A DNA stretch of 14,400 bases from an uncultured Bacilli bacterium (GTDB taxonomy: Bacteria; Bacillota_I; Bacilli_A; RF39; UBA660). Numbering within the stretch: position 1 is the stretch's first letter; every line of letters begins with the position of its first letter. Where the stretch lies: positions 3,979-18,378 of the forward strand of contig CAJUCU010000011.1 of NCBI GenBank assembly GCA_910585335.1, given 5' to 3'. Position numbers and translations under genes: made by a program. This document shows, piece by piece, positions 3,142 to 12,840 of the stretch. The notes below the pieces were generated by a model. It was given only the letters and a program-made list of their open reading frames with translations. It was not told where the DNA came from and did no database searches.

Positions 3142-6100
3142 ATGGTAGATTTAGGAATACAAAAAATACATCAATTTGTAGGTGCTGACTCTTATACAAA
3201 AGGGCTTCAATATCCTAAAAGATATGTAAAATATACAGATAAGTTTGATTTCAAGGATATTCATATTCATCAGTTTCAAGTGGAGTCAGAGCGTACTTAT
3301 GATTTTTATGAGGTGGAAATTCATGAGCGTGCTTGTGAAGTTTTAAATGCTACTTGTACTTGTCTTCAATATCAAAGAGTGGAGAGTTGTAAACATATTG
3401 CTGCTTGTTTGCTCCAATATAAAGAAGATATTTTTGTTGTTGATCCACTTGAGAAAAGTTTTTTGATTTCTAAAGGGATTTTAGAAGAATTTTATCAAAA
3501 ACCGACAACTCGAAAAGTAAAATTAAAGAAACAGTTAACACTTGCTTTAGAACTTGAGTTTCACAATTCTTACTATGGTTCTAGCGTTTATTTTAAATTT
3601 AAAATAGGGGAAGAGAAACTTTATAGTCTTAATAATAAATTAAGTAGATTTTTAGCCAATTATGATAGACGTGATGATGTTATTGAGTTTGGTAAGAATT
3701 TTACTTATGATCCAGAAGCTTATTTCTTTTCGAAGGAAGATGAAGAAATTATTTATTACTTGGTAGCACTTTATAAGAGAAATCCTTATTATAATTATAG
3801 AGATTTTTCTCTTAGTTTGGAGGAGGCCTCTCGACTTTTTTCGCTTTTGAGTCATAAAACTTTTTCGGTGGTAAAGCACGGGGAAATGCATCACTTTTTG
3901 GAAGAAAGTCCTATTGCTATATTATTTGCTAAAGAAGGGGAGTATTATCGTCTTTCTTTTCAAACAGATGGGGTTTCTTTTCTTACGAATGATTATCAGT
4001 ATGCTATAAAGGAAGATACTTTGTATCAAATTCCATCTAAAATTAGTCGGATTATTCAGGCGGTGAAGGAGAATAAACTAGATAATCTTATTTTTAAAAA
4101 ACAGGATTTATCGCTTTTTCATCAAGGAATTTTGCCTATTGTTCAAAATGATATTATTCTTGATGATTCTTTAAAAGATGAAATTGTTTTAGGAGTAAAG
4201 CCTGCAATTAAAATTTATTTAGATTTAAAAAATAAGATGATTCTTTGCAATGTTAAACTTCAGTATCAAGAAGAAGAGATTGATTACTTTGATTCTTTCT
4301 CTCATATTGTTCGAGATGAACAAATAGAAAGTCAGGTGATAGAGGATCTTTTGAAATATGGCTTTTTGGTGGAGAATAAGAAAATTTATATAGATGATGT
4401 TGATGTTATTGGAGAGTTTTTGACTTGTTATTTAGAAGCGCTTGCAACAGATTATGAGGTTTTTACATCTGAGAAAGTAAAGAAGACCAATATTTTGAAA
4501 GATATGAGTATTCGTTCTAGTTTTAGTATTGGTCAAGATAATATTATGAAGTATGAGTTTGATTTGGGGGATATTCATAAGAGTGAGATTGGTCATGTTT
4601 TGGATAGCATGAGGAAGAATAAGAAATATTATCGTTTGAAAAATGGACATTTGTTAGATTTAAGTGAGAATCATGAATTGAAACAGTTACAATCTTTGAT
4701 AAATGATATGGAACTCACCGATAAAGATTTACAAAATGGTAATGGTAGTCTTCCGAAATATAGGGCTATATATTTGGACAGTATCAAGAAGGAGCAATAT
4801 CATATTATTCAAACTGATAATTTATTTGATGAGTTGATTTATAATTTTAATTCTTATAAGGATGAGAGGATACAGCTTAGTCCTAAAGAAAAAAAGATTT
4901 TGCGTGATTATCAGGAAATAGGAGTGAAATGGTTATATAATATTTATAAGTGTGGATTTGGTGGTATTTTAGCCGATGAAATGGGACTTGGAAAGTCTAT
5001 TCAACTTATTTATTTTCTTAAGCAAGTTTTAAAAGAGAAAAGGGATGCTAAGATTTTAATTGTAGCACCTACTGCGCTTATTTATAATTGGAAAAATGAG
5101 TTTGATAAATTTGGTAGAGAGATGAAGTATAAAGTTTTTGCTGAGAGTAGAGTTTTACGAAAAAAGGAATTAGAACGTGCTCAAGATATTAATGTTTTTA
5201 TTACTACTTATGGTCTTCTTAAGCAAGATCAAGAACTATATTCTGCTATTTCTTTTGATGTGATTGCGATTGATGAAGCTCAAAATATTAAGAATGCTAA
5301 TTCACAAATGACTAAAATAGTGAAATCTATGCAAGGATCTGTTATGCTTGCTTTAACTGGGACTCCGCTTGAAAACTCTGTTTTAGAACTTTGGAGTATT
5401 TTTGATTTTATTATGCCAGGTTATTTGTCTAGTTATATGAGTTTTCAAAAGAAATATAATGTGAGAGATGTTGATAAGGATAACTTAAAGTTATTAGATA
5501 ATCTAAATCAAAAAATCCAACCATTTATTCTTAGAAGACGAAAAAAAGATGTTGTGACAGAACTTCCAGAGAAGCTTGAAAATAATATTTATATTGATTT
5601 AACTGAACAACAGAAGAAGCTTTATGTTGCACAACTTGAAAAGACAAAAAAGGAAATGGATGAAATTATAGCGACAGAAGGATTTCGAAAGGGTAGTTTT
5701 AAAATTTTACAGTTGCTTACGAAATTGAGGCAACTTTGTATTGATCCTAGAATTTTGTATGAAAATTATAAAGGGGGCAGTGCTAAGATAGAGAATTTGG
5801 TTTCTTTGGTGGAAGAAGTGATTCAAAATGGTCATAAGATTTTACTTTTTACTAGTTACAAGACGGCTTTAGATATTGTCAATCGAGAATTTACTAATCG
5901 CAATATTTCTACTTATGTTATTGATGGAAGTGTATCTTCTAAAAAGCGAATGGAACTGGTTGATAAGTTTAATCAAGATGATACTAATGTTTTTTTAATC
6001 ACTTTGAAAGCTGGAGGGACAGGGCTTAATCTTACTAGTGCAGATGTTGTGATTCACTTAGATTTATGGTGGAATCCACAAGTTGAAAATCAAGCTACTG

Positions 6101-6315
6101 ATAGGGCTCATAGAATTGGCCAGAAGAATACGGTTGAAGTAATTAAACTAATTTGTAAAGGAACTATTGAAGAGAGAATTTTGGAACTTCAAAATAAGAA
6201 GAAAGTTCTTAGTGATAAGGTAATTGAAGGGGATGAACGCGATCAGAATATTCTTTCTCGACTTACTGAAAAAGATATTCAGCGCTTGTTATCTTTGGAT
6301 TATGAGGATGTTTAG
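3142..6315 (+). CDS. SWIM zinc finger + SNF2-family DEAD/DEAH helicase (YwqA-like), 1057 aa
   Basis: N-terminal SWIM motif CTCLQYQRVESCKHIAACLL (CxC...CxH). Helicase motifs are LADEMGLGKS (Walker A/motif I), DEAQNIKN (motif II), LTGTPLEN (motif III), and LKAGGTGLNLTSADVVIHLDLWWNPQVENQATDRAHRIGQ (motifs V-VI, typical of SNF2). Confidence 0.95.
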   Translation: MVDLGIQKIHQFVGADSYTKGLQYPKRYVKYTDKFDFKDIHIHQFQVESERTYDFYEVEIHERACEVLNATCTCLQYQRVESCKHIAACLLQYKEDIFVVDPLEKSFLISKGILEEFYQKPTTRKVKLKKQLTLALELEFHNSYYGSSVYFKFKIGEEKLYSLNNKLSRFLANYDRRDDVIEFGKNFTYDPEAYFFSKEDEEIIYYLVALYKRNPYYNYRDFSLSLEEASRLFSLLSHKTFSVVKHGEMHHFLEESPIAILFAKEGEYYRLSFQTDGVSFLTNDYQYAIKEDTLYQIPSKISRIIQAVKENKLDNLIFKKQDLSLFHQGILPIVQNDIILDDSLKDEIVLGVKPAIKIYLDLKNKMILCNVKLQYQEEEIDYFDSFSHIVRDEQIESQVIEDLLKYGFLVENKKIYIDDVDVIGEFLTCYLEALATDYEVFTSEKVKKTNILKDMSIRSSFSIGQDNIMKYEFDLGDIHKSEIGHVLDSMRKNKKYYRLKNGHLLDLSENHELKQLQSLINDMELTDKDLQNGNGSLPKYRAIYLDSIKKEQYHIIQTDNLFDELIYNFNSYKDERIQLSPKEKKILRDYQEIGVKWLYNIYKCGFGGILADEMGLGKSIQLIYFLKQVLKEKRDAKILIVAPTALIYNWKNEFDKFGREMKYKVFAESRVLRKKELERAQDINVFITTYGLLKQDQELYSAISFDVIAIDEAQNIKNANSQMTKIVKSMQGSVMLALTGTPLENSVLELWSIFDFIMPGYLSSYMSFQKKYNVRDVDKDNLKLLDNLNQKIQPFILRRRKKDVVTELPEKLENNIYIDLTEQQKKLYVAQLEKTKKEMDEIIATEGFRKGSFKILQLLTKLRQLCIDPRILYENYKGGSAKIENLVSLVEEVIQNGHKILLFTSYKTALDIVNREFTNRNISTYVIDGSVSSKKRMELVDKFNQDDTNVFLITLKAGGTGLNLTSADVVIHLDLWWNPQVENQATDRAHRIGQKNTVEVIKLICKGTIEERILELQNKKKVLSDKVIEGDERDQNILSRLTEKDIQRLLSLDYEDV

Positions 6316-6429
6316 TATTTTTGGATGAGCAAATATGAAGTACATAGTTATTTTAACTTTATAAAAATAAAAACTGTATTTATGAATATTAACATGTATT
6401 TGCAATGTCTAATTTTGATTAAAAATTGT

Positions 6430-6457
6430 TTTACCTAATAGGGTTTTGTGTTATACT
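6430..6457 (+). promoter_or_regulatory. Putative tRNA promoter (TTTACC-16 nt-TGtTATACT)
   Basis: -35-like TTTACC at 6430-6435, TG at 6449-6450 and TATACT at 6452-6457, 18 nt upstream of the tRNA 5' end. Confidence 0.4.
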
Positions 6458-6475
6458 AGTTTTGTAGCAAGTCAT

Positions 6476-6551
6476 GCCGACTTAGCTCAGTTGGTAGAGC
6501 AACGCCCTCGTAACGCGTAGGTCGAAGGTTCAAGTCCTTTAGTCGGCACCA
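6476..6551 (+). tRNA. tRNA-Thr (anticodon CGU), CCA encoded
   Basis: Hand-folded cloverleaf. The acceptor stem GCCGACT pairs with AGTCGGC. The D arm is GCTC-AGTTGGTA-GAGC. The anticodon arm is ACGCC-CTCGTAA-CGCGT, with U33, anticodon CGT at 6509-6511 and A37; the loop-proximal 31:39 pair is a C-C mismatch. The variable loop is AGGTC and the T arm is GAAGG-TTCAAGT-CCTTT. Discriminator A plus CCA end at 6551. Confidence 0.88.
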
Positions 6552-6564
6552 GAGTGATACTAAA

Positions 6565-6596
6565 CTCGAACTTTTGAATTATAAAGTTCGGGTTTT
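6565..6596 (+). terminator. Rho-independent terminator after the tRNA
   Basis: A 10-bp stem pairs CTCGAACTTT (6565-6574) with AAAGTTCGGG (6583-6592), including one G.U. The loop is 8 nt and TTTT follows at 6593-6596. Confidence 0.7.
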
Positions 6597-6712
6597 AATA
6601 TGTTTAGAATATGATAGAATATTTATGAAAACTTGAAGATGTCAATTTAGTAAAAATATACTTGTACAGTGACATTATTAATATATATTTTCAATTAATA
6701 AGGAGCAGTCTT

Positions 6713-7462
6713 ATGAAAGTGAAAAATATTACAATTAGTGATATTCAAGATATTGATTCCTAATTTTCATTTTTTCATTATACGAATAAAAATAATATTG
6801 AGAGTATAGATAAAAATGGGCTAATTTCTAAAATTGGAGATAGTGCAACAGGTATAGAAATAACTGAAAAAATATTTTTTGCTATTGGAATAAAGGGAGT
6901 ATTTTCTATTTTTGATTCTTGGATAAGGTGGTTAATAGCCAAAAGATTAACAGATTTACCAGGAAAAAAAGCGGATATATCGTTTTATCGTTTCTGTACT
7001 TTTGTGATGAGATTACCAGTTTTGCATTATTTTGTGGCAATCATTGTTAATTTAGCAGTTTGGTTAGAATTTAGATTTAAACCATTTAAAATCAAATCTT
7101 TTAAAATTATGAAAGATATATTAGATAATAGTTGCTTTCTAATATTAGATTTAGAAGAAGAGGTCTACTTTTCATATAAAGATATTGGCGAGGTAAAGAA
7201 TCAAAAATTTAATAGAAAGTTATTAAAAACAGTATATGCTAGGCAAAATAAAATGAATAGTAAAAAAATGGATTATTGGAATATGCATACTTTTAGTAAT
7301 GTAGCTATTCCTCCTAATAAAATAACATTAATTAAACTTCACGATTCTTATAATTGCTTAGATATTTTATTATGGATGATAGAAAATATAAAATTAGATT
7401 TAAAAGTATTATCTCCTTATTTATATGAATTTTTAGATTATTATAAGTTACTGAAGAAATAA
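6713..7462 (+). pseudogene. Hypothetical protein gene with an in-frame TAA at codon 17 (16 aa + stop + 232 aa), otherwise intact
   Basis: Possible promoter TTGTAC (6662-6667)-16 nt-TATATT (6684-6689). AAGGAG at 6700-6705 sits 7 nt before ATG 6713. I checked the reading codon by codon: MKVKNITISDIQDIDS-TAA(6761-6763)-FSFFHYTNKNNIESIDKNGLISKIGDSATGIEITEKIFFAIG... It is open in the same frame to the stop at 7460-7462. The track reports only the GTG 7004 remnant (152 aa), which has no SD. Confidence 0.5.
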
Positions 7463-7511
7463 TTATAAATGCTATTGTACTTGATCAGATTGATTGTTAT
7501 TTGGACTTTTC

Positions 7512-7536
7512 CTAACTAAAAATAGTTAGATTTTTG
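7512..7536 (+). terminator. Weak AT-rich rho-independent terminator
   Basis: A 7-bp stem pairs CTAACTA (7512-7518) with TAGTTAG (7523-7529). The loop is AAAA and TTTTTGTT begins at 7531. Confidence 0.35.
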
Positions 7537-7678
7537 TTCTTTCTCGGAAAGTGAGAATCATAATTATGGTAATAGAAACAAAAGTACTTGTAATATGTGA
7601 AGATTTAGAAAGAAAAGTAGATGAAAATAGCTGGTTATTATTTGGTGAAGTGAAAATATATTTATTAAATAGCATTTA

Positions 7679-7687
7679 TGATATAAT
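7679..7687 (+). promoter_or_regulatory. Extended -10 promoter (TGaTATAAT) for the retron ncRNA/RT transcript
   Basis: TG at 7679-7680 and TATAAT at 7682-7687. The predicted start is around 7693-7696, about 185 nt upstream of the RT ATG. The core TGATATAATATA recurs at 8922-8933. Confidence 0.5.
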
Positions 7688-7693
7688 ATAGAA

Positions 7694-7875
7694 GCAGTAG
7701 TGATTGGATTATTTCCTACTTTAGCGAGTCGTTAAGGGACTTTAATAATTGTGATGATTAATAGTAATATTCCAAAGGACTAAACTACACGCTGTGTAGA
7801 CGCTACGTTCTACTTCGCTTCAGTCCATTTCCATATTACAATATCATTTGTACTGCAAATTAAATAGGAGGTAGT
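7694..7875 (+). ncRNA. Candidate retron non-coding RNA (msr-msd); boundaries approximate
   Basis: This is an untranslated leader between the promoter and the RT. Inverted-repeat pair B joins 7708-7723 with 7861-7875 (15 bp, 3 G.U, one bulged C) and ends directly next to G7724 in TTAGCGAG. Alternative pair A joins 7694-7704 with 7843-7856 (6+4 bp). Internal hairpins: 7726-7742; CTACAC-GCT-GTGTAG at 7785-7799; GTAGA/TCTAC at 7796-7813; and GGACT/AGTCC enclosing 7777-7826. The 7785-7826 patch is visibly more GC-rich than its surroundings. Confidence 0.55.
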
Positions 7876-7879
7876 AAAA

Positions 7880-8827
7880 ATGTGGAAGTACATAGGAACT
7901 AAAGAATGTAATGAATTTTTGCTATCTCTTAATTTATTTGATTTTAAGAATAAAGACATGTATATAAAAACTATTTATTCTATTACTAATAATATAGAGT
8001 CAAATTACAAAATCTATAAAATTAAAAAGAAAAATGGCAATTACAGAACTATATATGAACCAAATCCATTATTAAAATCTATTCAAAGAAATATTTTGGC
8101 AAATATACTTAATCATAAATCTGTATCTAAATATGCCAAAGCATATCATAAGGGAACTTCATTACTAGATAATGCACTGCCACATATTAATAAAAGAATG
8201 ATTTTAAAACTAGATATAAAAAATTTTTTTGAAAATATATCTTTTTTTGATATTTATAATTGTTGTTTCCCGATAGAATACTTTCCTAAATCTGTAGGGA
8301 TGGTGTTGACTTATCTATGTACTTATGATGGGCATTTGACGCAAGGATCTCCAACATCTTCCTATATTTCAAATCTTGTTATGAAGGATTTTGATGAAGA
8401 AATTGGCACTTGGTGTGATTTGAATCATATTGCTTATACACGATATTCAGATGATATGACTTTTTCTGGAATTTTTAATCCCAGTGAAATAATCATTAAA
8501 GTTAGAAAGTTATTATATAAATTAGGATTAGAATTAAATAATAGTAAAATTCATGTGGTAAGTAATCATTTTAGTCAAAAAGTTACAGGAATTGTAGTTA
8601 ATGAAAAAGCACAGGTCTGTTTAAAGTATCGTAAAGAAATAAGAAAAGAAATATACTATATAAATAAATTTGGATTATGTTCTCATTTAAAACGATGTAA
8701 TATAGATGTTTCTCCTGAAAAATATTTGCAGAAATTATATGGAAAAATATTGTATGTTTTGCAAATTGATTCACACAATCAAGAATTTTTAAAGTATAAA
8801 GAAATCATTAATAAGTTTAAATTGTAA
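7880..8827 (+). CDS. Retron-type reverse transcriptase (315 aa)
   Basis: AGGAGG at 7866-7871 sits 8 nt before the ATG. RT motifs in order are YRTIYEPNPLLKSIQRNI (RT1/2), NALPH (8171-8185), LDIKNFFENI (motif A), LTQGSPTSSYISNL (motif B), YTRYSDDMTF (YxDD, 8444-8455) and KVTGIVVN (VTG at 8582-8590). The protein is short, with no maturase X, endonuclease or other fused domain. Confidence 0.88.
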   Translation: MWKYIGTKECNEFLLSLNLFDFKNKDMYIKTIYSITNNIESNYKIYKIKKKNGNYRTIYEPNPLLKSIQRNILANILNHKSVSKYAKAYHKGTSLLDNALPHINKRMILKLDIKNFFENISFFDIYNCCFPIEYFPKSVGMVLTYLCTYDGHLTQGSPTSSYISNLVMKDFDEEIGTWCDLNHIAYTRYSDDMTFSGIFNPSEIIIKVRKLLYKLGLELNNSKIHVVSNHFSQKVTGIVVNEKAQVCLKYRKEIRKEIYYINKFGLCSHLKRCNIDVSPEKYLQKLYGKILYVLQIDSHNQEFLKYKEIINKFKL

Positions 8828-8921
8828 CTATCATATAGTCATTTTTATTATTTGAGTAAAAGTGAAATTCATAAATCAATAGAGAAAATCGGCAAGAAGA
8901 CAAAATAACTATAATACACTG

Positions 8922-8930
8922 TGATATAAT
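8922..8930 (+). promoter_or_regulatory. Extended -10 promoter (TGaTATAAT) upstream of the 79-aa/364-aa gene pair
   Basis: TG at 8922-8923 and TATAAT at 8925-8930, 31 nt upstream of ATG 8962. It shares the 12-nt core TGATATAATATA with the promoter at 7679. I see no terminator hairpin between the RT stop (8827) and this site. Confidence 0.45.
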
Positions 8931-8961
8931 ATAAGTACTATACGATTTACGGAGGTATTCC

Positions 8962-9201
8962 ATGAAGAATGAAAATAGGCAAAAGGTGGAAGTGGCAAGA
9001 CAATTTTGTCAGGCAGTTAAGGATTTAGCCCAAAACTATAATTTACCATTTTTTGTGGTGACAGATGGGGCTAGTGCCACTAGTAATAATGGTTGTGAAG
9101 CAGTAAAGAATGCAAGAGATCATCATATTAGATGGGAACAGGAAAATGGATATGATCCTTATGAAGATTGGAGTAAAAAAGATGGAACAAAAAATCAATA
9201 A
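8962..9201 (+). CDS. 79-aa hypothetical protein, first gene of the pair downstream of the RT
   Basis: GGAGG at 8951-8955 sits 6 nt before the ATG. The sequence MKNENRQKVEVARQFCQAVKDLAQNYNLPFFVVTDGASATSNNGCEAVKNARDHHIRWEQENGYDPYEDWSKKDGTKNQ matches no family I recognise. Its 3' end overlaps the next ORF by 20 nt. Confidence 0.6.
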   Translation: MKNENRQKVEVARQFCQAVKDLAQNYNLPFFVVTDGASATSNNGCEAVKNARDHHIRWEQENGYDPYEDWSKKDGTKNQ

Positions 9202-10276
9202 TATAATGAATTTGATGGATTCTATTGAATATGGTTTTAAAGATGAAAATGGTAAAAATATAATTAATACCAATCCTCAGAAATGGGATGATGAATTTTA
9301 TAAGTTCTATTATTTGCAAACTCCAGACGAATTGTTAAAATCTAAATGTGGCGTATGTTGGGATCAAGTAGAATTGGAAAGAAAATTGTTCCAGGATAAT
9401 AATATCAAATTTAAAACTTATTTTATTTATATGGTAGATCATGATATGTTACCATCCCATACTTTTTTAACTTATGAAAATAATAATAAATATTATTGGT
9501 TTGAACATTCTTGGAGTGCATATAAAGGAGTTCATGAATACAAAAGTGAATTAGAACTATTATTAGATGTGAAAAAAAATTTTATGAAAGAACATAATTA
9601 TGTTAGTGAGAATTGTTTTTTATATATTTATGAGTATCAAAAACCTAAAAAACATATCACTTGTGATGAATTCTATCAGTATATTGAAACACAAAAATTG
9701 ATGAAAATAAATAAACCATTCTATTTTTATCATTTAGTAAATAAAAATGTTGATATGAGCAATGGTTTATTAAGTCTTCAATATATGTATGATAACAAGA
9801 TGTATGATTTATTTGATAAAAATGTTTTAAAGTATAAAGATAGAATATTAAATGATTGGGATATAAAAAAATATAAGGGAAAATCTAATTTGACTCGTGA
9901 AGAATATATGGATGCTTTAAATATTTTTAGGGGAAAATATGGCTCCAATTATATATACTTTTTTAGATATCCTCCATATAAAAATTTGGGCAATAAAATA
10001 AATGAATTATCTAAGTATAAAGATATTTATAGAATTAATATAAATGATGAAGAGGTTCAAAAATCAATAACTGATATTTTTTATGGCTATGATATGAGTG
10101 ATAGTGATCAGCAATTATTAAATCGGAAGTATTATGAAAATATTTCAGAAGAAGAATACTTTTCTAAGTATGATGATACTCTTTCTATGAATTTTAGTAC
10201 ATTAAATCATATCGGCATCAGTTTTCAAAATGGGTATTGTCCAAGTCAATTTTTAGAACAGATTAACTGGGAATAA
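9182..10276 (+). CDS. 364-aa two-domain protein: N-terminal transglutaminase/papain-like Cys-His domain plus an uncharacterised C-terminal domain (candidate retron effector)
   Basis: I chose ATG 9182 (GGAG at 9170-9173, 8-nt spacer). The track's 9110 start would lie deep inside the previous ORF. In the N-domain, SKCGVCWDQVELERKLF (Cys codons at 9347 and 9356) is followed 34 codons later by PSHTFLTYENNNKYYWFEHSW. This gives C-x34-H-x13-E spacing, similar to the Cys-His-Asp/Glu core of transglutaminase-like proteases. The C-domain runs from about 9716 and starts PFYFYHLVNKNVDMSNGLLS. Confidence 0.75.
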   Translation: MEQKINNIMNLMDSIEYGFKDENGKNIINTNPQKWDDEFYKFYYLQTPDELLKSKCGVCWDQVELERKLFQDNNIKFKTYFIYMVDHDMLPSHTFLTYENNNKYYWFEHSWSAYKGVHEYKSELELLLDVKKNFMKEHNYVSENCFLYIYEYQKPKKHITCDEFYQYIETQKLMKINKPFYFYHLVNKNVDMSNGLLSLQYMYDNKMYDLFDKNVLKYKDRILNDWDIKKYKGKSNLTREEYMDALNIFRGKYGSNYIYFFRYPPYKNLGNKINELSKYKDIYRININDEEVQKSITDIFYGYDMSDSDQQLLNRKYYENISEEEYFSKYDDTLSMNFSTLNHIGISFQNGYCPSQFLEQINWE

Positions 10277-10311
10277 AGCATAGTGGAAATATGTATTAAT
10301 GGGAGGTTATT

Positions 10312-10816
10312 ATGAAAGATAGGGTGAATACTACTAATATAGCGATGCATTTAGTCCAATCATTTTGCTGAACCTAGTATGTTTACGGATAAAAAAGGAT
10401 ATTTTGAATTCTTAAGAGAAAAGAATCAAGGGATTAATTCACAGTTTTGGATCGATTTTGAAGAAGATATATATAAAGTAGAAAGAGAAAAATTGAATGC
10501 TGAAGGTCCAGATGAAATTGTATCGAGGGGTGTTCATTATATAAATGTCCTTCAGGAGTTTTCTAATTACTTTCATATAAAAAAGCCAAATAGTAAGTTG
10601 ATTGTTTGGTGTGGTACTCACTATGATTTCATAAGTCCATTTGCCAAGCAAACTATTTTTGGCTATGAGAAAAATGATGTTGTTAGTGTAGATTATTGTG
10701 GTGGAATATCATTAGGAATTGATAACTCTAACCATATCATTGCTAATGTTAATAATCAGTTTTATCCAATTTGTTTTGAAGATATAAAACCGCATCATCG
10801 ACACTTGGGAAAATAG
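10312..10816 (+). pseudogene. Hypothetical ORF split by a +1/-1 frameshift at a T4 run (19-aa head plus 145-aa body)
   Basis: GGGAGG at 10301-10306 sits 5 nt before ATG 10312, giving MKDRVNTTNIAMHLVQSFC-TGA (10369-10371). The 145-aa track ORF (ATG 10379) has no SD, and its frame is open back to 10355. Removing one T from TTTT at 10363-10366 would fuse them as ...HLVQSFAEPSMFTDKKGYF... The body shows a faint resemblance to the C-terminal half of histidine phosphatases (SKLIVWCGTHYDFISPF). I do not rely on that. Confidence 0.4.
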
Positions 10817-11333
10817 GGACGCCCTTTTCTTTAAAACGAGAAAAGTACTCTCTATTTCTTTTTATTTTTTCAATGTCATCGCTTTTCATACCACCATCAT
10901 AATTATGTTCTTCTCTGTGTTTTATATATTTTAAGTGAGTATCGAAATCTGGGATAACAATAGCATCTGGAATCATATTTACTGAACTGGCACCAATGAC
11001 CCAAAATCCTAGTTTTTTTGCCTGTTCTGTAATAACGTCTGCTTTTCTTTCAATGCTATCGATTTCTTCCTCGCTCCAATTCCACCAATCTCCTTTAGGA
11101 AAAGCATTACAAGATTCCCATAAAACATCCCCATCTATCCAGTTGTTTTCTTTTTGATGTTTCACATAATAGGTTTTTCCAATCCCACTTGGACCATAAA
11201 TAAATAGTCCTTTCTTGTGCGTTATATATCTTTGTTTTAACTCGTTCCAAACAGTAGAACCATCACTAAAAATAATTGGCGTATTTTTATCTAATAAGTT
11301 ATCATTTAAAAAATCATTATCCATATAATCCAT
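10749..11333 (-). CDS. Small P-loop NTPase (kinase-like), 191-194 aa
   Basis: Walker A motif in LFIYGPSGIGKTYYV. AAAGG lies directly against ATG 11333, so the second ATG (11324-11322, 9-nt spacer) is the likelier start. The 3' end overlaps the convergent ORF 10379-10816 by 68 nt. Confidence 0.7.
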   Translation of the reverse strand: MDYMDNDFLNDNLLDKNTPIIFSDGSTVWNELKQRYITHKKGLFIYGPSGIGKTYYVKHQKENNWIDGDVLWESCNAFPKGDWWNWSEEEIDSIERKADVITEQAKKLGFWVIGASSVNMIPDAIVIPDFDTHLKYIKHREEHNYDGGMKSDDIEKIKRNREYFSRFKEKGVPIFPSVDDAVLYLQNKLDKTDY

Positions 11334-11406
11334 CCTTTCGTTCTTTTATTATATCATTATATAATAAATCGGTATAATATTTTGTATTCGAAAAATAATA
11401 TGTAAT

Positions 11407-12357
11407 ATGAAGAAATTATTTTTAATGAAAAATCCTGATTTATTTCAGGGAGAACAATACTTGAATACGAACACCAATTATTTTGAAGGATGGTATTTTA
11501 AAAATGTAAATGGCGAGAGGGGGATTTCTTTTATTCCTGGGATTCATATTAGTGATACTGCAAAGAATGCTTTTATCCAAGTGATTACGAATGATTCGTC
11601 TTATTATGTTCCTTATTCTATTTCAGATTTTGCATTTTCTTTTGATCCTTTTTGTATTACAATTGGCAAGAATACTTTTACAAAAGAGGGACTTCATATT
11701 GAGATAGAAGATAAAAAACAAAAGCTTCATATTTTGGGTGATATTTTCTATTTTGATAGTAAAAATATAAAACCACGGTTTTTAGCCCCTAATATCATGG
11801 GCCCTTTTTCTTATATTCCTTTTATGGAGTGTAATCATGCTATTTTGAGTATGCAAAATAAAATAAATGGTTTTATTAAGATTAATGGAAATTTATTGGA
11901 TTTTGGGCATGGTACTGGTTATATTGAGAAAGATTGGGGTTTTTCTTTTCCTAAATCTTATATTTGGTGTCAGGGGAATTGTTTTAAGAAGGATGCTAGC
12001 TTTATGCTCTCTATTGCCGATATTCCTTTTCAACTTTTTCATTTTAGAGGATTTATTTGTGTGCTCATGATAGATAATCAGGAATTTCAATTTACTACAT
12101 ATAATCATGCTAAAATAGAAAAATATCATGTTGATGATTCCTTATTAGATATTATTTTAAAAAAAGGCTGCTACTTTCTTCATATACAATCAGAATATGA
12201 AAACGGGATGAAGCTGATGGCCCCAGTGAAAGGCAAAATGGAGAAGGATATTTTAGAAAGTATTACGACTTTTGTTACAGTGACTTTGAAGAAGGATGAT
12301 GAAATTATTTTTTCTGATACTAGTACTAACTGTGGCTTAGAAATTGTTCTTTCATAG
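11407..12357 (+). CDS. Tocopherol cyclase family protein (bacterial homologue, function unknown)
   Basis: The N-terminal YFEGWYFKNV motif and the roughly 300-aa beta-rich layout match what I remember of the tocopherol cyclase family in Clostridia. There is no obvious SD before ATG 11407, so the start is uncertain. Confidence 0.55.
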   Translation: MKKLFLMKNPDLFQGEQYLNTNTNYFEGWYFKNVNGERGISFIPGIHISDTAKNAFIQVITNDSSYYVPYSISDFAFSFDPFCITIGKNTFTKEGLHIEIEDKKQKLHILGDIFYFDSKNIKPRFLAPNIMGPFSYIPFMECNHAILSMQNKINGFIKINGNLLDFGHGTGYIEKDWGFSFPKSYIWCQGNCFKKDASFMLSIADIPFQLFHFRGFICVLMIDNQEFQFTTYNHAKIEKYHVDDSLLDIILKKGCYFLHIQSEYENGMKLMAPVKGKMEKDILESITTFVTVTLKKDDEIIFSDTSTNCGLEIVLS

Positions 12358-12411: not shown

Positions 12412-12840
12412 ATGGAAGAAAATATAAATGCACTAGATGAAATTCATAAAGGTGCCTGTATGGGTATGGATGCGTTACACTTTATTTCAGATAAAGTAGA
12501 AGATGATAAGCTACGTGAGGAACTTCGGAAACAGTATGATGATTATAAAAAGATTATGAGTCGAATAGAAGAGATTTATCCTAAATATAATGATGGTCTT
12601 CCTCATAAAACAACTACCATGAATAAAGCTCTCACTTGGTATGGTATTTCTATGAAGACTTTTTCTGACAAAAGTACGTCTAAGCTTGCGGAACTTTTAT
12701 TAGAAGGAGTGAATATGGGCATTATTGAAGGTAGAAAAGTACTGAATAATAAAAATGTGGATAAAGAAGTTCATAAAATTATTGATCAATTTGTTTCTAT
12801 GCAAGAAAAAAGTGTAGAAGCTTTAAAAAAATATTTATAG
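12412..12840 (+). CDS. 142-aa helical hypothetical protein (ferritin-like/four-helix-bundle type)
   Basis: AGGAG at 12398-12402 sits 9 nt before the ATG. The sequence is helix-rich and charged (LDEIHKGACMGMDALHFISDKVEDDKLREELRKQYDDYKK...). The family assignment is uncertain. Confidence 0.55.
   Translation: MEENINALDEIHKGACMGMDALHFISDKVEDDKLREELRKQYDDYKKIMSRIEEIYPKYNDGLPHKTTTMNKALTWYGISMKTFSDKSTSKLAELLLEGVNMGIIEGRKVLNNKNVDKEVHKIIDQFVSMQEKSVEALKKYL

Follow-up and report, generated by a model that had tools for sequence, protein, structure and literature searches.

The window analyzed here is a stretch of 14,400 nucleotides of contig CAJUCU010000011.1 (positions 3,979 to 18,378) from an uncultured Bacilli bacterium. 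Positions 7679–8827 of the window very probably represent a stand-alone retron cassette that is complete, probably active, and a member of the Ec107-like lineage (Retron-Eco5, reverse transcriptase [RT] clade 2). Three parts are packed within 1.15 kb of a window of low GC content (22–34%): an extended −10 promoter, a 165-nt msr-msd non-coding RNA (ncRNA), and an open reading frame (ORF) for a 315-amino-acid (aa) RT. The promoter, ncRNA, and RT ORF are one conserved unit. When the window is compared with all related loci using blastn, homology is confined to a segment from ~7655/7679 through ~8820/8845. Conservation begins at the extended −10 element and ends a few bases from the RT stop codon, and inspection of the cassette ends across loci revealed no terminal repeats. 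The same unit recurs in at least 60 species of gut-associated Bacilli, where its genomic surroundings are unrelated. The original prediction, made from the sequence of the window, called this segment a retron, i.e., an RT gene preceded by an msr-msd RNA that is flanked by a1/a2 repeats. Its coordinates and description are accurate, and RT profile scores and covariation in the ncRNA uphold the call.

The Ec107 branch was described as a stand-alone cassette without associated proteins by Mestre et al. in 2020 (PMC7736814); in their data, clade 2 is mostly from Gammaproteobacteria. A 2026 survey of the SPIRE catalogue lists clade2_Ec107like as the second most abundant retron group (n = 192), with 93% of members from Bacillota and 91% host-associated. 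The Ec107_like ncRNA model is among those most frequently detected, and the group has no recurrent accessory modules and was rated as being of low novelty (10.64898/2026.05.14.725207). Because the branch, its bias toward Bacillota and the gut, and its missing accessory genes have already been published, the window cassette is a further member of a known lineage, and the taxonomic novelty outside Proteobacteria that was originally proposed is outdated. A single locus adds little in itself. It is valuable as a well-resolved representative of an abundant retron group with unassigned function; what is new here is an ncRNA model at the level of base pairs, a precise delimitation of the cassette (from the −10 element to the stop codon), and evidence that the genes on either side occur independently of the RT. 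The features of the cassette, all on the forward strand, are as follows.

7679–7687, +: extended −10 promoter, TGATATAAT; from sequence, conserved across loci
7693–7857, +: retron ncRNA (msr-msd); sole match to covariance model R1 in the window (179 bits, E = 2e-35), with covariation
7694–7699, +: a1 inverted repeat, GCAGTA; pairs with a2 (helix 1, 94–97% paired, with GC-to-AU and AU-to-GC double changes)
7700, +: candidate branching (priming) G, directly 3′ of a1; invariant (57/57), role assigned from retron biology
7706–7716, +: msr hairpin 1 (GGAU/UUCC); compensatory changes at all its pairs
7719–7737, +: msr hairpin 2, CUUUAGCG-AGU-CGUUAAGG, with conserved apex GCG-AGU-CG; 100% paired in 51 sequences, 3–6 covarying pairs
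7753–7848, +: msd long stem-loop, predicted template of the multicopy single-stranded DNA (msDNA); covariation in every stem
7753–57/7844–48, 7764–69/7834–39, and 7777–80/7823–26, +: msd stems; covariation
7785–90/7794–99, +: msd apical hairpin; covariation
7800–7822, +: variable, length-polymorphic msd segment; deleted or shortened in L013, L015, L016, L022, L023, L026, and L029
7850, +: G opposing the branching G, directly 5′ of a2; invariant (57/57), reverse transcription predicted to proceed from the base 5′ of it
7851–7856, +: a2 inverted repeat, TACTGC; pairs with a1, covariation
7866–7871, +: ribosome-binding site, AGGAGG, 8 nt 5′ of the ATG; from sequence, conserved across loci
7880–8827, +: retron RT, 315 aa; PADLOC RT_Ec107-like, 7e-124, full length
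8171–8185, +: RT motif NALPH (aa 98–102); from sequence
8342–8359, +: RT motif QGSPTS (aa 155–160); from sequence
8444–8455, +: RT motif YSDD (aa 189–192); from sequence
8582–8590, +: RT motif VTG (aa 235–237); from sequence

The reverse transcriptase and its closest relatives

Scanning species-representative genomes yielded 72 loci, 65 of which encode an RT of the same family, with 44–92% identity to the window RT. Most of the records are titled uncultured Bacilli, “Tenericutes,” “Mollicutes,” or Clostridium sp. CAG:302, and the samples come from human, mouse, rabbit, and other guts. The host had been taken for a “Clostridia-type” organism; the titles of its relatives indicate metagenome-assembled genomes of uncultured Bacilli, “Tenericutes,” or “Mollicutes” and not typical Clostridia. 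A large protein collection holds more than 1,800 related proteins, and the cassette is abundant in gut metagenomes.

The RT is compact, as originally described: the NALPH, QGSPTS, YSDD, and VTG motifs are all in place, and RVT_1 is the sole Pfam domain, with no accessory domain. The 25 best PADLOC matches listed for the protein are all retron RT models. Its top matches in the PDB are likewise all retron RTs, the best being Ec86 (E = 1.8e-34, residues 18–262). Placement against curated retron models, a check proposed with the original prediction, groups the protein with retron RTs, and Ec107-like is the best profile. The window RT scores 411 bits with RT_Ec107-like and 341 bits with the best type III-A model. 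For calibration, the corresponding scores are 437 and 313 bits for the RT of E. coli Ec107, 340 and 507 bits for a type III-A RT from a Bacillus mycoides plasmid, and 320 and 409 bits for a type III-A RT from a Vagococcus lutrae plasmid. By this measure, the window RT behaves like Ec107 and not like type III-A. The catalytic box points the same way: among 55 intact homologues it is YSDD in 53 and YCDD in two; it is YCDD in Ec107 (PMC6868368) and YADD in type III-A homologues. The other retron signatures are similarly stable, with region X reading NAxxH in 52 and NVxxH in three of these homologues, and motif 7 reading VTG in 48 and ITG in seven.

Retron-Eco5 (Ec107) resembles the window cassette in most respects. 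Both consist of a compact intergenic ncRNA and an RT of ~315–319 aa, with no effector or mobility genes (PMC6868368), and the two RTs have near-equal scores with the Ec107-like profile. In both, the second residue of the catalytic box is not alanine. The two ncRNAs share a CA(G/A)UA-G start, a GCG-AGU-CGC msr hairpin, and their overall architecture. There are also clear differences. The two RTs are only 40% identical (over 309 aa by BLASTP, E = 2e-82), and the host of the window cassette is a low-GC, uncultured gut Bacilli bacterium, not E. coli. The ncRNA has a GC content of 35% in the window and 55% in Ec107, and the a1/a2 duplex is 6–7 bp in the window but ~16 bp in Ec107. Furthermore, production of msDNA is proven for Ec107 and predicted for the window cassette. 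We located Ec107 by searching complete E. coli genomes with a 47-nt msd query made from two primer-derived ncRNA fragments (PMC8563936 supplement). Matches were obtained in 385 of 5426 genomes, at 381 places on chromosomes and five on plasmids. In the one match examined (L095, NZ_CP033401.1 3634631–3635932), Ec107 lies between pyrE and slmA beside a 319-aa RT and nothing else, whereas the window family occupies many contexts. PGAP labels this RT “reverse transcriptase family protein” and gives the ncRNA no annotation.

Other known retrons differ from the window cassette to varying degrees. The metagenomic clade2_Ec107like retrons (PMC7736814; 10.64898/2026.05.14.725207) share its profile class, Bacillota host, gut source, and lack of recurrent accessory genes; we see no difference of substance. 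The closest effector-bearing relatives are the type III-A retrons of B. mycoides pl208 (L084) and V. lutrae pK136-2-B (L083), whose RTs are 43–44% identical to the window RT. Type III-A is also the second-best PADLOC profile for the window RT, and the B. mycoides type III-A ncRNA has the same GGCGAGUCGCC msr hairpin. Unlike the window cassette, however, type III-A retrons have genes for a phosphoribosyltransferase (PRTase) and a winged helix-turn-helix (wHTH) protein immediately upstream. Their RTs, extended at the N terminus, are longer (338–345 aa), carry a YADD box, and score higher with the III-A profile than with the Ec107-like profile; the reverse is true for the window RT. Retron-Eco1 (Ec86), the best PDB match, has the same a1/a2 repeats, branching G, msr hairpins, and msd stem, but it is a type II-A retron with a nucleoside deoxyribosyltransferase (NDT) effector and belongs to another RT clade. 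II-A profiles score just 189–215 bits on the window RT.

The leader and its non-coding RNA

Consistent with the original prediction of an untranslated leader of ~180 nt bounded by inverted repeats, just 3′ of an extended −10 element, the leader is ~186 nt from a1 to the ATG, and the a1 and a2 repeats enclose the ncRNA. A −10-like hexamer is present in all 57 family loci, with the sequence TATAAT in 48 and a TG extension in 52, and the spacing from the −10 element to a1 is constant in most of them. The predicted transcription start is near 7693–7694, right at a1. In a consensus promoter scan, promoter-like sites were no more common than in shuffled sequence. Gene callers place a 41-aa ORF (7566–7691) across the promoter region, where it is listed for L073–L078; it is conserved in no other locus and is probably spurious.

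The structure of the ncRNA was derived by comparison. The leaders of 51 distinct loci were aligned with MAFFT, and RNAalifold followed by hand refinement gave seven helices comprising 41 base pairs. In this alignment, 95.3% of cells are paired, with compensatory changes in 18 of the 41 pairs. An alignment of 57 sequences to the covariance model has up to 95.7% of cells paired and compensatory changes in 33 of the 41 pairs, although, being fitted to the model, this alignment leans toward structure. None of 500 shuffles matches the observed pairing and covariation, and slid controls are only 32–50% paired. The original prediction would have been weakened by a leader that is not conserved in homologous loci; its structure is kept in 51–57 leaders. 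Model R1 finds exactly one match per locus, always just 5′ of the RT, including in four loci where the RT is only 44–47% identical. With filters off, R1 also detects the E. coli Ec107 ncRNA, at full length and in the right place (L095 2451–2626), with 32.2 bits and a rough E-value of 6e-6. By this match and the shared GCG-AGU-CGC hairpin, the window ncRNA is homologous to the Ec107 msr-msd. The GCGAGUCGC apex of msr hairpin 2 is likewise present in both the Ec107 ncRNA and the B. mycoides type III-A ncRNA.

A hallmark described for retron ncRNAs is “two opposing G residues” (PMC7736814). The invariance of G7700 and G7850 matches this hallmark, with the chemical role of these residues assigned by analogy; in the Ec107 ncRNA, the counterpart of G7700 in the alignment is the G of CAAUAG. 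The predicted msd product (the reverse complement), when folded as DNA, has a z-score of −3.75. At the base of the msd, two pairings compete. An extension of the a1/a2 duplex (UGAU 7701–04 with AUCA 7843–46) is 91% paired, but its changes are mainly to U-G wobble, and we rejected it as part of the model. The competing helix, 7753–57/7844–48, has real covariation, including 15 double changes at one pair, and is retained. Both pairings may form. The segment at 7800–7822 follows the apical msd hairpin and extends to the closing GUCC. It is wholly absent from L013 and L015, and is shortened to a GCG-CUU-CGC mini-hairpin in several other loci; the full-length form holds a direct CTTCG repeat. Insertions and deletions are naturally tolerated at this site.

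Neighboring genes, maintenance, and rival readings

Most characterized retrons have an effector encoded in cis (PMC7736814), and the original prediction implied an adjacent effector. In such a tripartite retron, an adjacent gene would encode an effector restrained by the RT-msDNA complex. The candidates in the window are a 152-aa ORF at 7004–7462, a pair of ORFs (79 aa and 374 or 388 aa) at 8962–10276, and an SNF2-family helicase gene at 3142–6315. The neighbors are uncharacterized, with Pfam, PADLOC, NCBIfam, and PHROGs yielding just a weak DUF553 match, and the SNF2 protein matches the PADLOC DpdE and ZorD models. However, none of the window's neighbors accompanies the RT in the 65 family loci, and the flanking genes exist without the RT. 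The only homologue of a window ORF other than the RT in those loci is that of the 142-aa ORF at 12412–12840, in L027; even L001, whose RT is 92% identical, lacks the window's neighbor genes. The pair of ORFs is lineage-wide, with 621 homologues, and occurs without an RT in L085–L090. The SNF2 gene retains its upstream synteny in RT-free relatives (71–79% identity), its PADLOC matches reflect the generic SNF2 fold, and its SNF2_assoc domain is typical of bacterial SNF2 helicases. Across loci, the immediate neighbors of the RT are a miscellany dominated by housekeeping genes (by Pfam: YchF, enolase, S-adenosylmethionine synthetase, NusB, UvrD, and others), and the largest neighbor family in an all-against-all clustering occurs in at most seven of 72 loci. 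tblastn searches with the V. lutrae and B. mycoides proteins found no PRTase or wHTH homologues in the window or in the family loci compared. We therefore consider a tripartite arrangement very improbable. Absence of a linked effector is the known exception that sets the Ec107 branch apart from other retrons (PMC7736814). Because homology is confined to the cassette, no neighbor recurs, and PRTase and wHTH genes are missing, we regard the cassette as stand-alone.

A second alternative is that the cassette derives from a type III-A retron, has lost the PRTase and wHTH genes, and persists as a decaying or purely selfish remnant with no cellular function. The closest effector-bearing relatives are indeed type III-A retrons, with the order PRTase-wHTH-ncRNA-RT, and loss of associated proteins was proposed for the Ec107 branch by Mestre et al. 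(PMC7736814). In addition, four of 59 copies are disrupted, and the unrelated contexts suggest mobility. Nevertheless, the cassette is maintained and not decaying. Compared pairwise with eleven homologues, the window RT has a dN/dS of 0.14–0.31, out to saturated dS; 55 of 59 RT ORFs are intact, with intact catalytic motifs in all 55. The promoter is conserved, and the ncRNA is kept by compensatory changes. Nucleotide identity of the ncRNA is 72–93% in 10 of 11 comparisons, equal to or higher than the amino-acid identity of the RT down to 66% RT identity; in the most distant comparison, with L048, it is 54% (RT identity, 62%). The cassette is also present in at least 60 species and plentiful in gut metagenomes, with no mobility gene or terminal repeat alongside it. 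Decay from a type III-A retron thus seems improbable, if a little less so than an adjacent effector. A third possibility, that the protein is a non-retron RT (from a group II intron, a diversity-generating retroelement [DGR], or an abortive infection [Abi] or UG/DRT system) behind an ordinary 5′ untranslated region, can practically be dismissed. It draws on weak NCBIfam matches to Drt2, Drt3a, and group II RT models, but these score 41–51 bits against cut-offs of 200–390; the group II intron model TIGR04416 scores 42 bits against a cut-off of 300, and there is no intron RNA or other Rfam family. Instead of the template and variable repeats (TR/VR) of a DGR, positions 5500–11500 contain just two chance-level 36-nt direct repeats (72–75% identical). 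The protein also bears the retron-specific NAXXH and VTG motifs, and its best PADLOC matches are the retron models described above.

Several observations weigh against our assignment of the cassette to a stand-alone, Ec107-like retron. The NCBIfam model retron_St85_RT scores 216.8 bits on the window RT, under its cut-off of 235 bits. In raw identity, Firmicute type III-A RTs (43–44%) are no lower than Ec107 (40%), such that placement in the Ec107-like branch is based on the profile scores of the RT, its YSDD/YCDD box, the homology of the ncRNA, and the architecture of the cassette, and not on a full phylogeny. Folded alone, the leader is indistinguishable from chance in AT-rich sequence (z = −0.23 and −1.16 against shuffles); the ncRNA claim is carried by the comparative evidence. 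Model R1 was built from family leaders only, its E-values are rough, and no Rfam family matches, even at E-values up to 10. The neighbor analysis, and with it the stand-alone reading, covers contig-scale context. For the window cassette and its close relatives, msDNA is a prediction. Lastly, Ec107 was left out of the defense assays of Millman et al. (10.1101/2020.06.21.156273), and its function is unassigned.

Several genes near family RTs deserve a brief description. The SNF2-family helicase in the window (1057 aa) has SNF2_assoc, SNF2-rel_dom, and Helicase_C domains, and matches the PADLOC DpdE/ZorD models with E-values as low as 1e-124. It is conserved in the lineage, with radical SAM and GNAT genes in upstream synteny, and its matches to defense models probably reflect the shared SNF2 fold and not a defense system. 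Outside the window, an ABC-type ATPase gene (288–302 aa) lies on the same strand and ends ~25 nt 5′ of a1 in seven family loci: L019 (4884–5789), L020, L022 (4938–5804), L025, L030 (4923–5786), L033, and L065. The protein matches Pfam AAA_15 and AAA_21 and, weakly (~1e-15), PADLOC PtuA, AriA, and mad3. The seven loci fall into two non-sister RT subclades. This ATPase could be an accessory gene that recurs in a lineage otherwise devoid of effectors, or its position could reflect retained synteny. Antisense or overlapping ORFs inside the RT were considered as a conserved feature and rejected, being seen in just four or five loci. The four interrupted RT frames are in L002 (3012–4144), which has an insertion of ~190 nt, and in L028 (5746–6942), L040 (2378–3315), and L057 (6001–6961), which have frameshifts or stops; in L028, the distance from a2 to the RT start is also longer by 60 nt. 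The ncRNAs of these four loci still score 143–192 bits. The interrupted RTs may be pseudogenes or assembly errors.

Predicted product, function, and mobility

The architecture of the cassette suggests how it might work. One transcript from near 7693 would fold into the ncRNA and also provide the message for the RT. The enzyme would bind the msr hairpins, prime from the 2′-OH of G7700, and copy the msd leftwards, from ~7849 to ~7745–7757. The product would be a branched msDNA hairpin of ~95–105 nt. This predicted size draws on Ec107: counting back 107 nt, the published msDNA size, from its opposing G leads, in the R1 alignment, to approximately window position 7745. We infer msDNA production because the priming architecture is conserved and because, for Ec107, the RT plus msr-msd suffices.

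Phage defense by members of the Ec107-like lineage is hypothetical. Mestre et al. (PMC7736814) allowed for an effector acting in trans or a different mechanism in the Ec107 branch. By analogy with the sister type III-A retrons, which act with PRTase and wHTH genes, the most likely output would be an RT-msDNA complex that works with an unlinked cellular partner in sensing phage or stress, to which we give an even chance. Alternatively, the RT-msDNA complex may itself be the functional unit, or may act by way of a conserved housekeeping factor of the host, without a dedicated toxin. We consider this possibility clearly less likely than an unlinked partner; it is suggested by the minimal cassette, purifying selection in at least 60 host-associated Bacilli species, the housekeeping surroundings, and conservation of the msd in sequence beyond structure. 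This pattern would fit an msDNA whose cellular or phage target is sequence-specific, a second, non-abortive-infection mode of retron action. That the cassette is a functionless remnant is the least probable of these outcomes, and we consider it improbable. The ncRNA model, the invariant G predicted to prime, the cassette limits, and the tolerance of 7800–7822 together provide a ready construct for testing RT and ncRNA for phenotypes. Since clade 2 retrons are reported to be among the highest producers of RT-DNA in an experimental census (PMC10849725), a compact, low-GC retron editor is a second possible use.

The cassette has different contexts even in loci with 92% RT identity, and the nearest homologue of the window SNF2 gene in the whole collection is only 79% identical; together, these observations suggest that the cassette is mobile. 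SNF2 and DUF553-gene orthologues were followed into relatives, and no filled/empty site pair was found; synteny was broken on one side in every relative followed. Two vehicles were considered and rejected. A tRNA-linked island is not indicated, because the 3′ end of the tRNA-Thr gene is not repeated in the window and tRNA genes are not consistently near the RT elsewhere. Carriage by phages or plasmids is not indicated either, with nothing found in IMG/VR and phage and plasmid matches all below 45% identity.

Two features of the flanking DNA bear on sites of insertion. In RT-free relatives, the DNA upstream of the 79-aa and 374-aa gene pair differs from that in the window, and often contains Mob_Pre or resolvase elements. 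Directly 5′ of the pair in these relatives (79 aa and 371 aa) are genes for a serine recombinase/resolvase, a Mob_Pre relaxase, or a DUF1016/YhcG nuclease (L085, 1–2334; L087, 3156–7787; L088, 119–2595), at the place where the window has the retron. The DNA 5′ of the 79-aa gene pair looks like a hot spot of recombination or insertion. The second feature is a conserved intergenic module of ~90 nt found in different genomes, which consists of a strong terminator hairpin, AAACTCGAACTTTT...AAAGTTCGAGTTTT, followed by an extended −10-like TGATATAAT. It is located at 6545–6629 in the window, after the tRNA-Thr gene, and at 7047–7136 in L001, 4494–4563 in L021, ~2690–2780 in L034, and ~11261–11300 in L079. 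In L001, the hairpin has a z-score of −5.6, and the module lies ~100 nt 3′ of the RT, preceded by GGCACCA, which resembles a tRNA 3′ end. Ec107 is reported to replace an intergenic palindrome, and the ~90-nt module might similarly mark insertion-prone sites.

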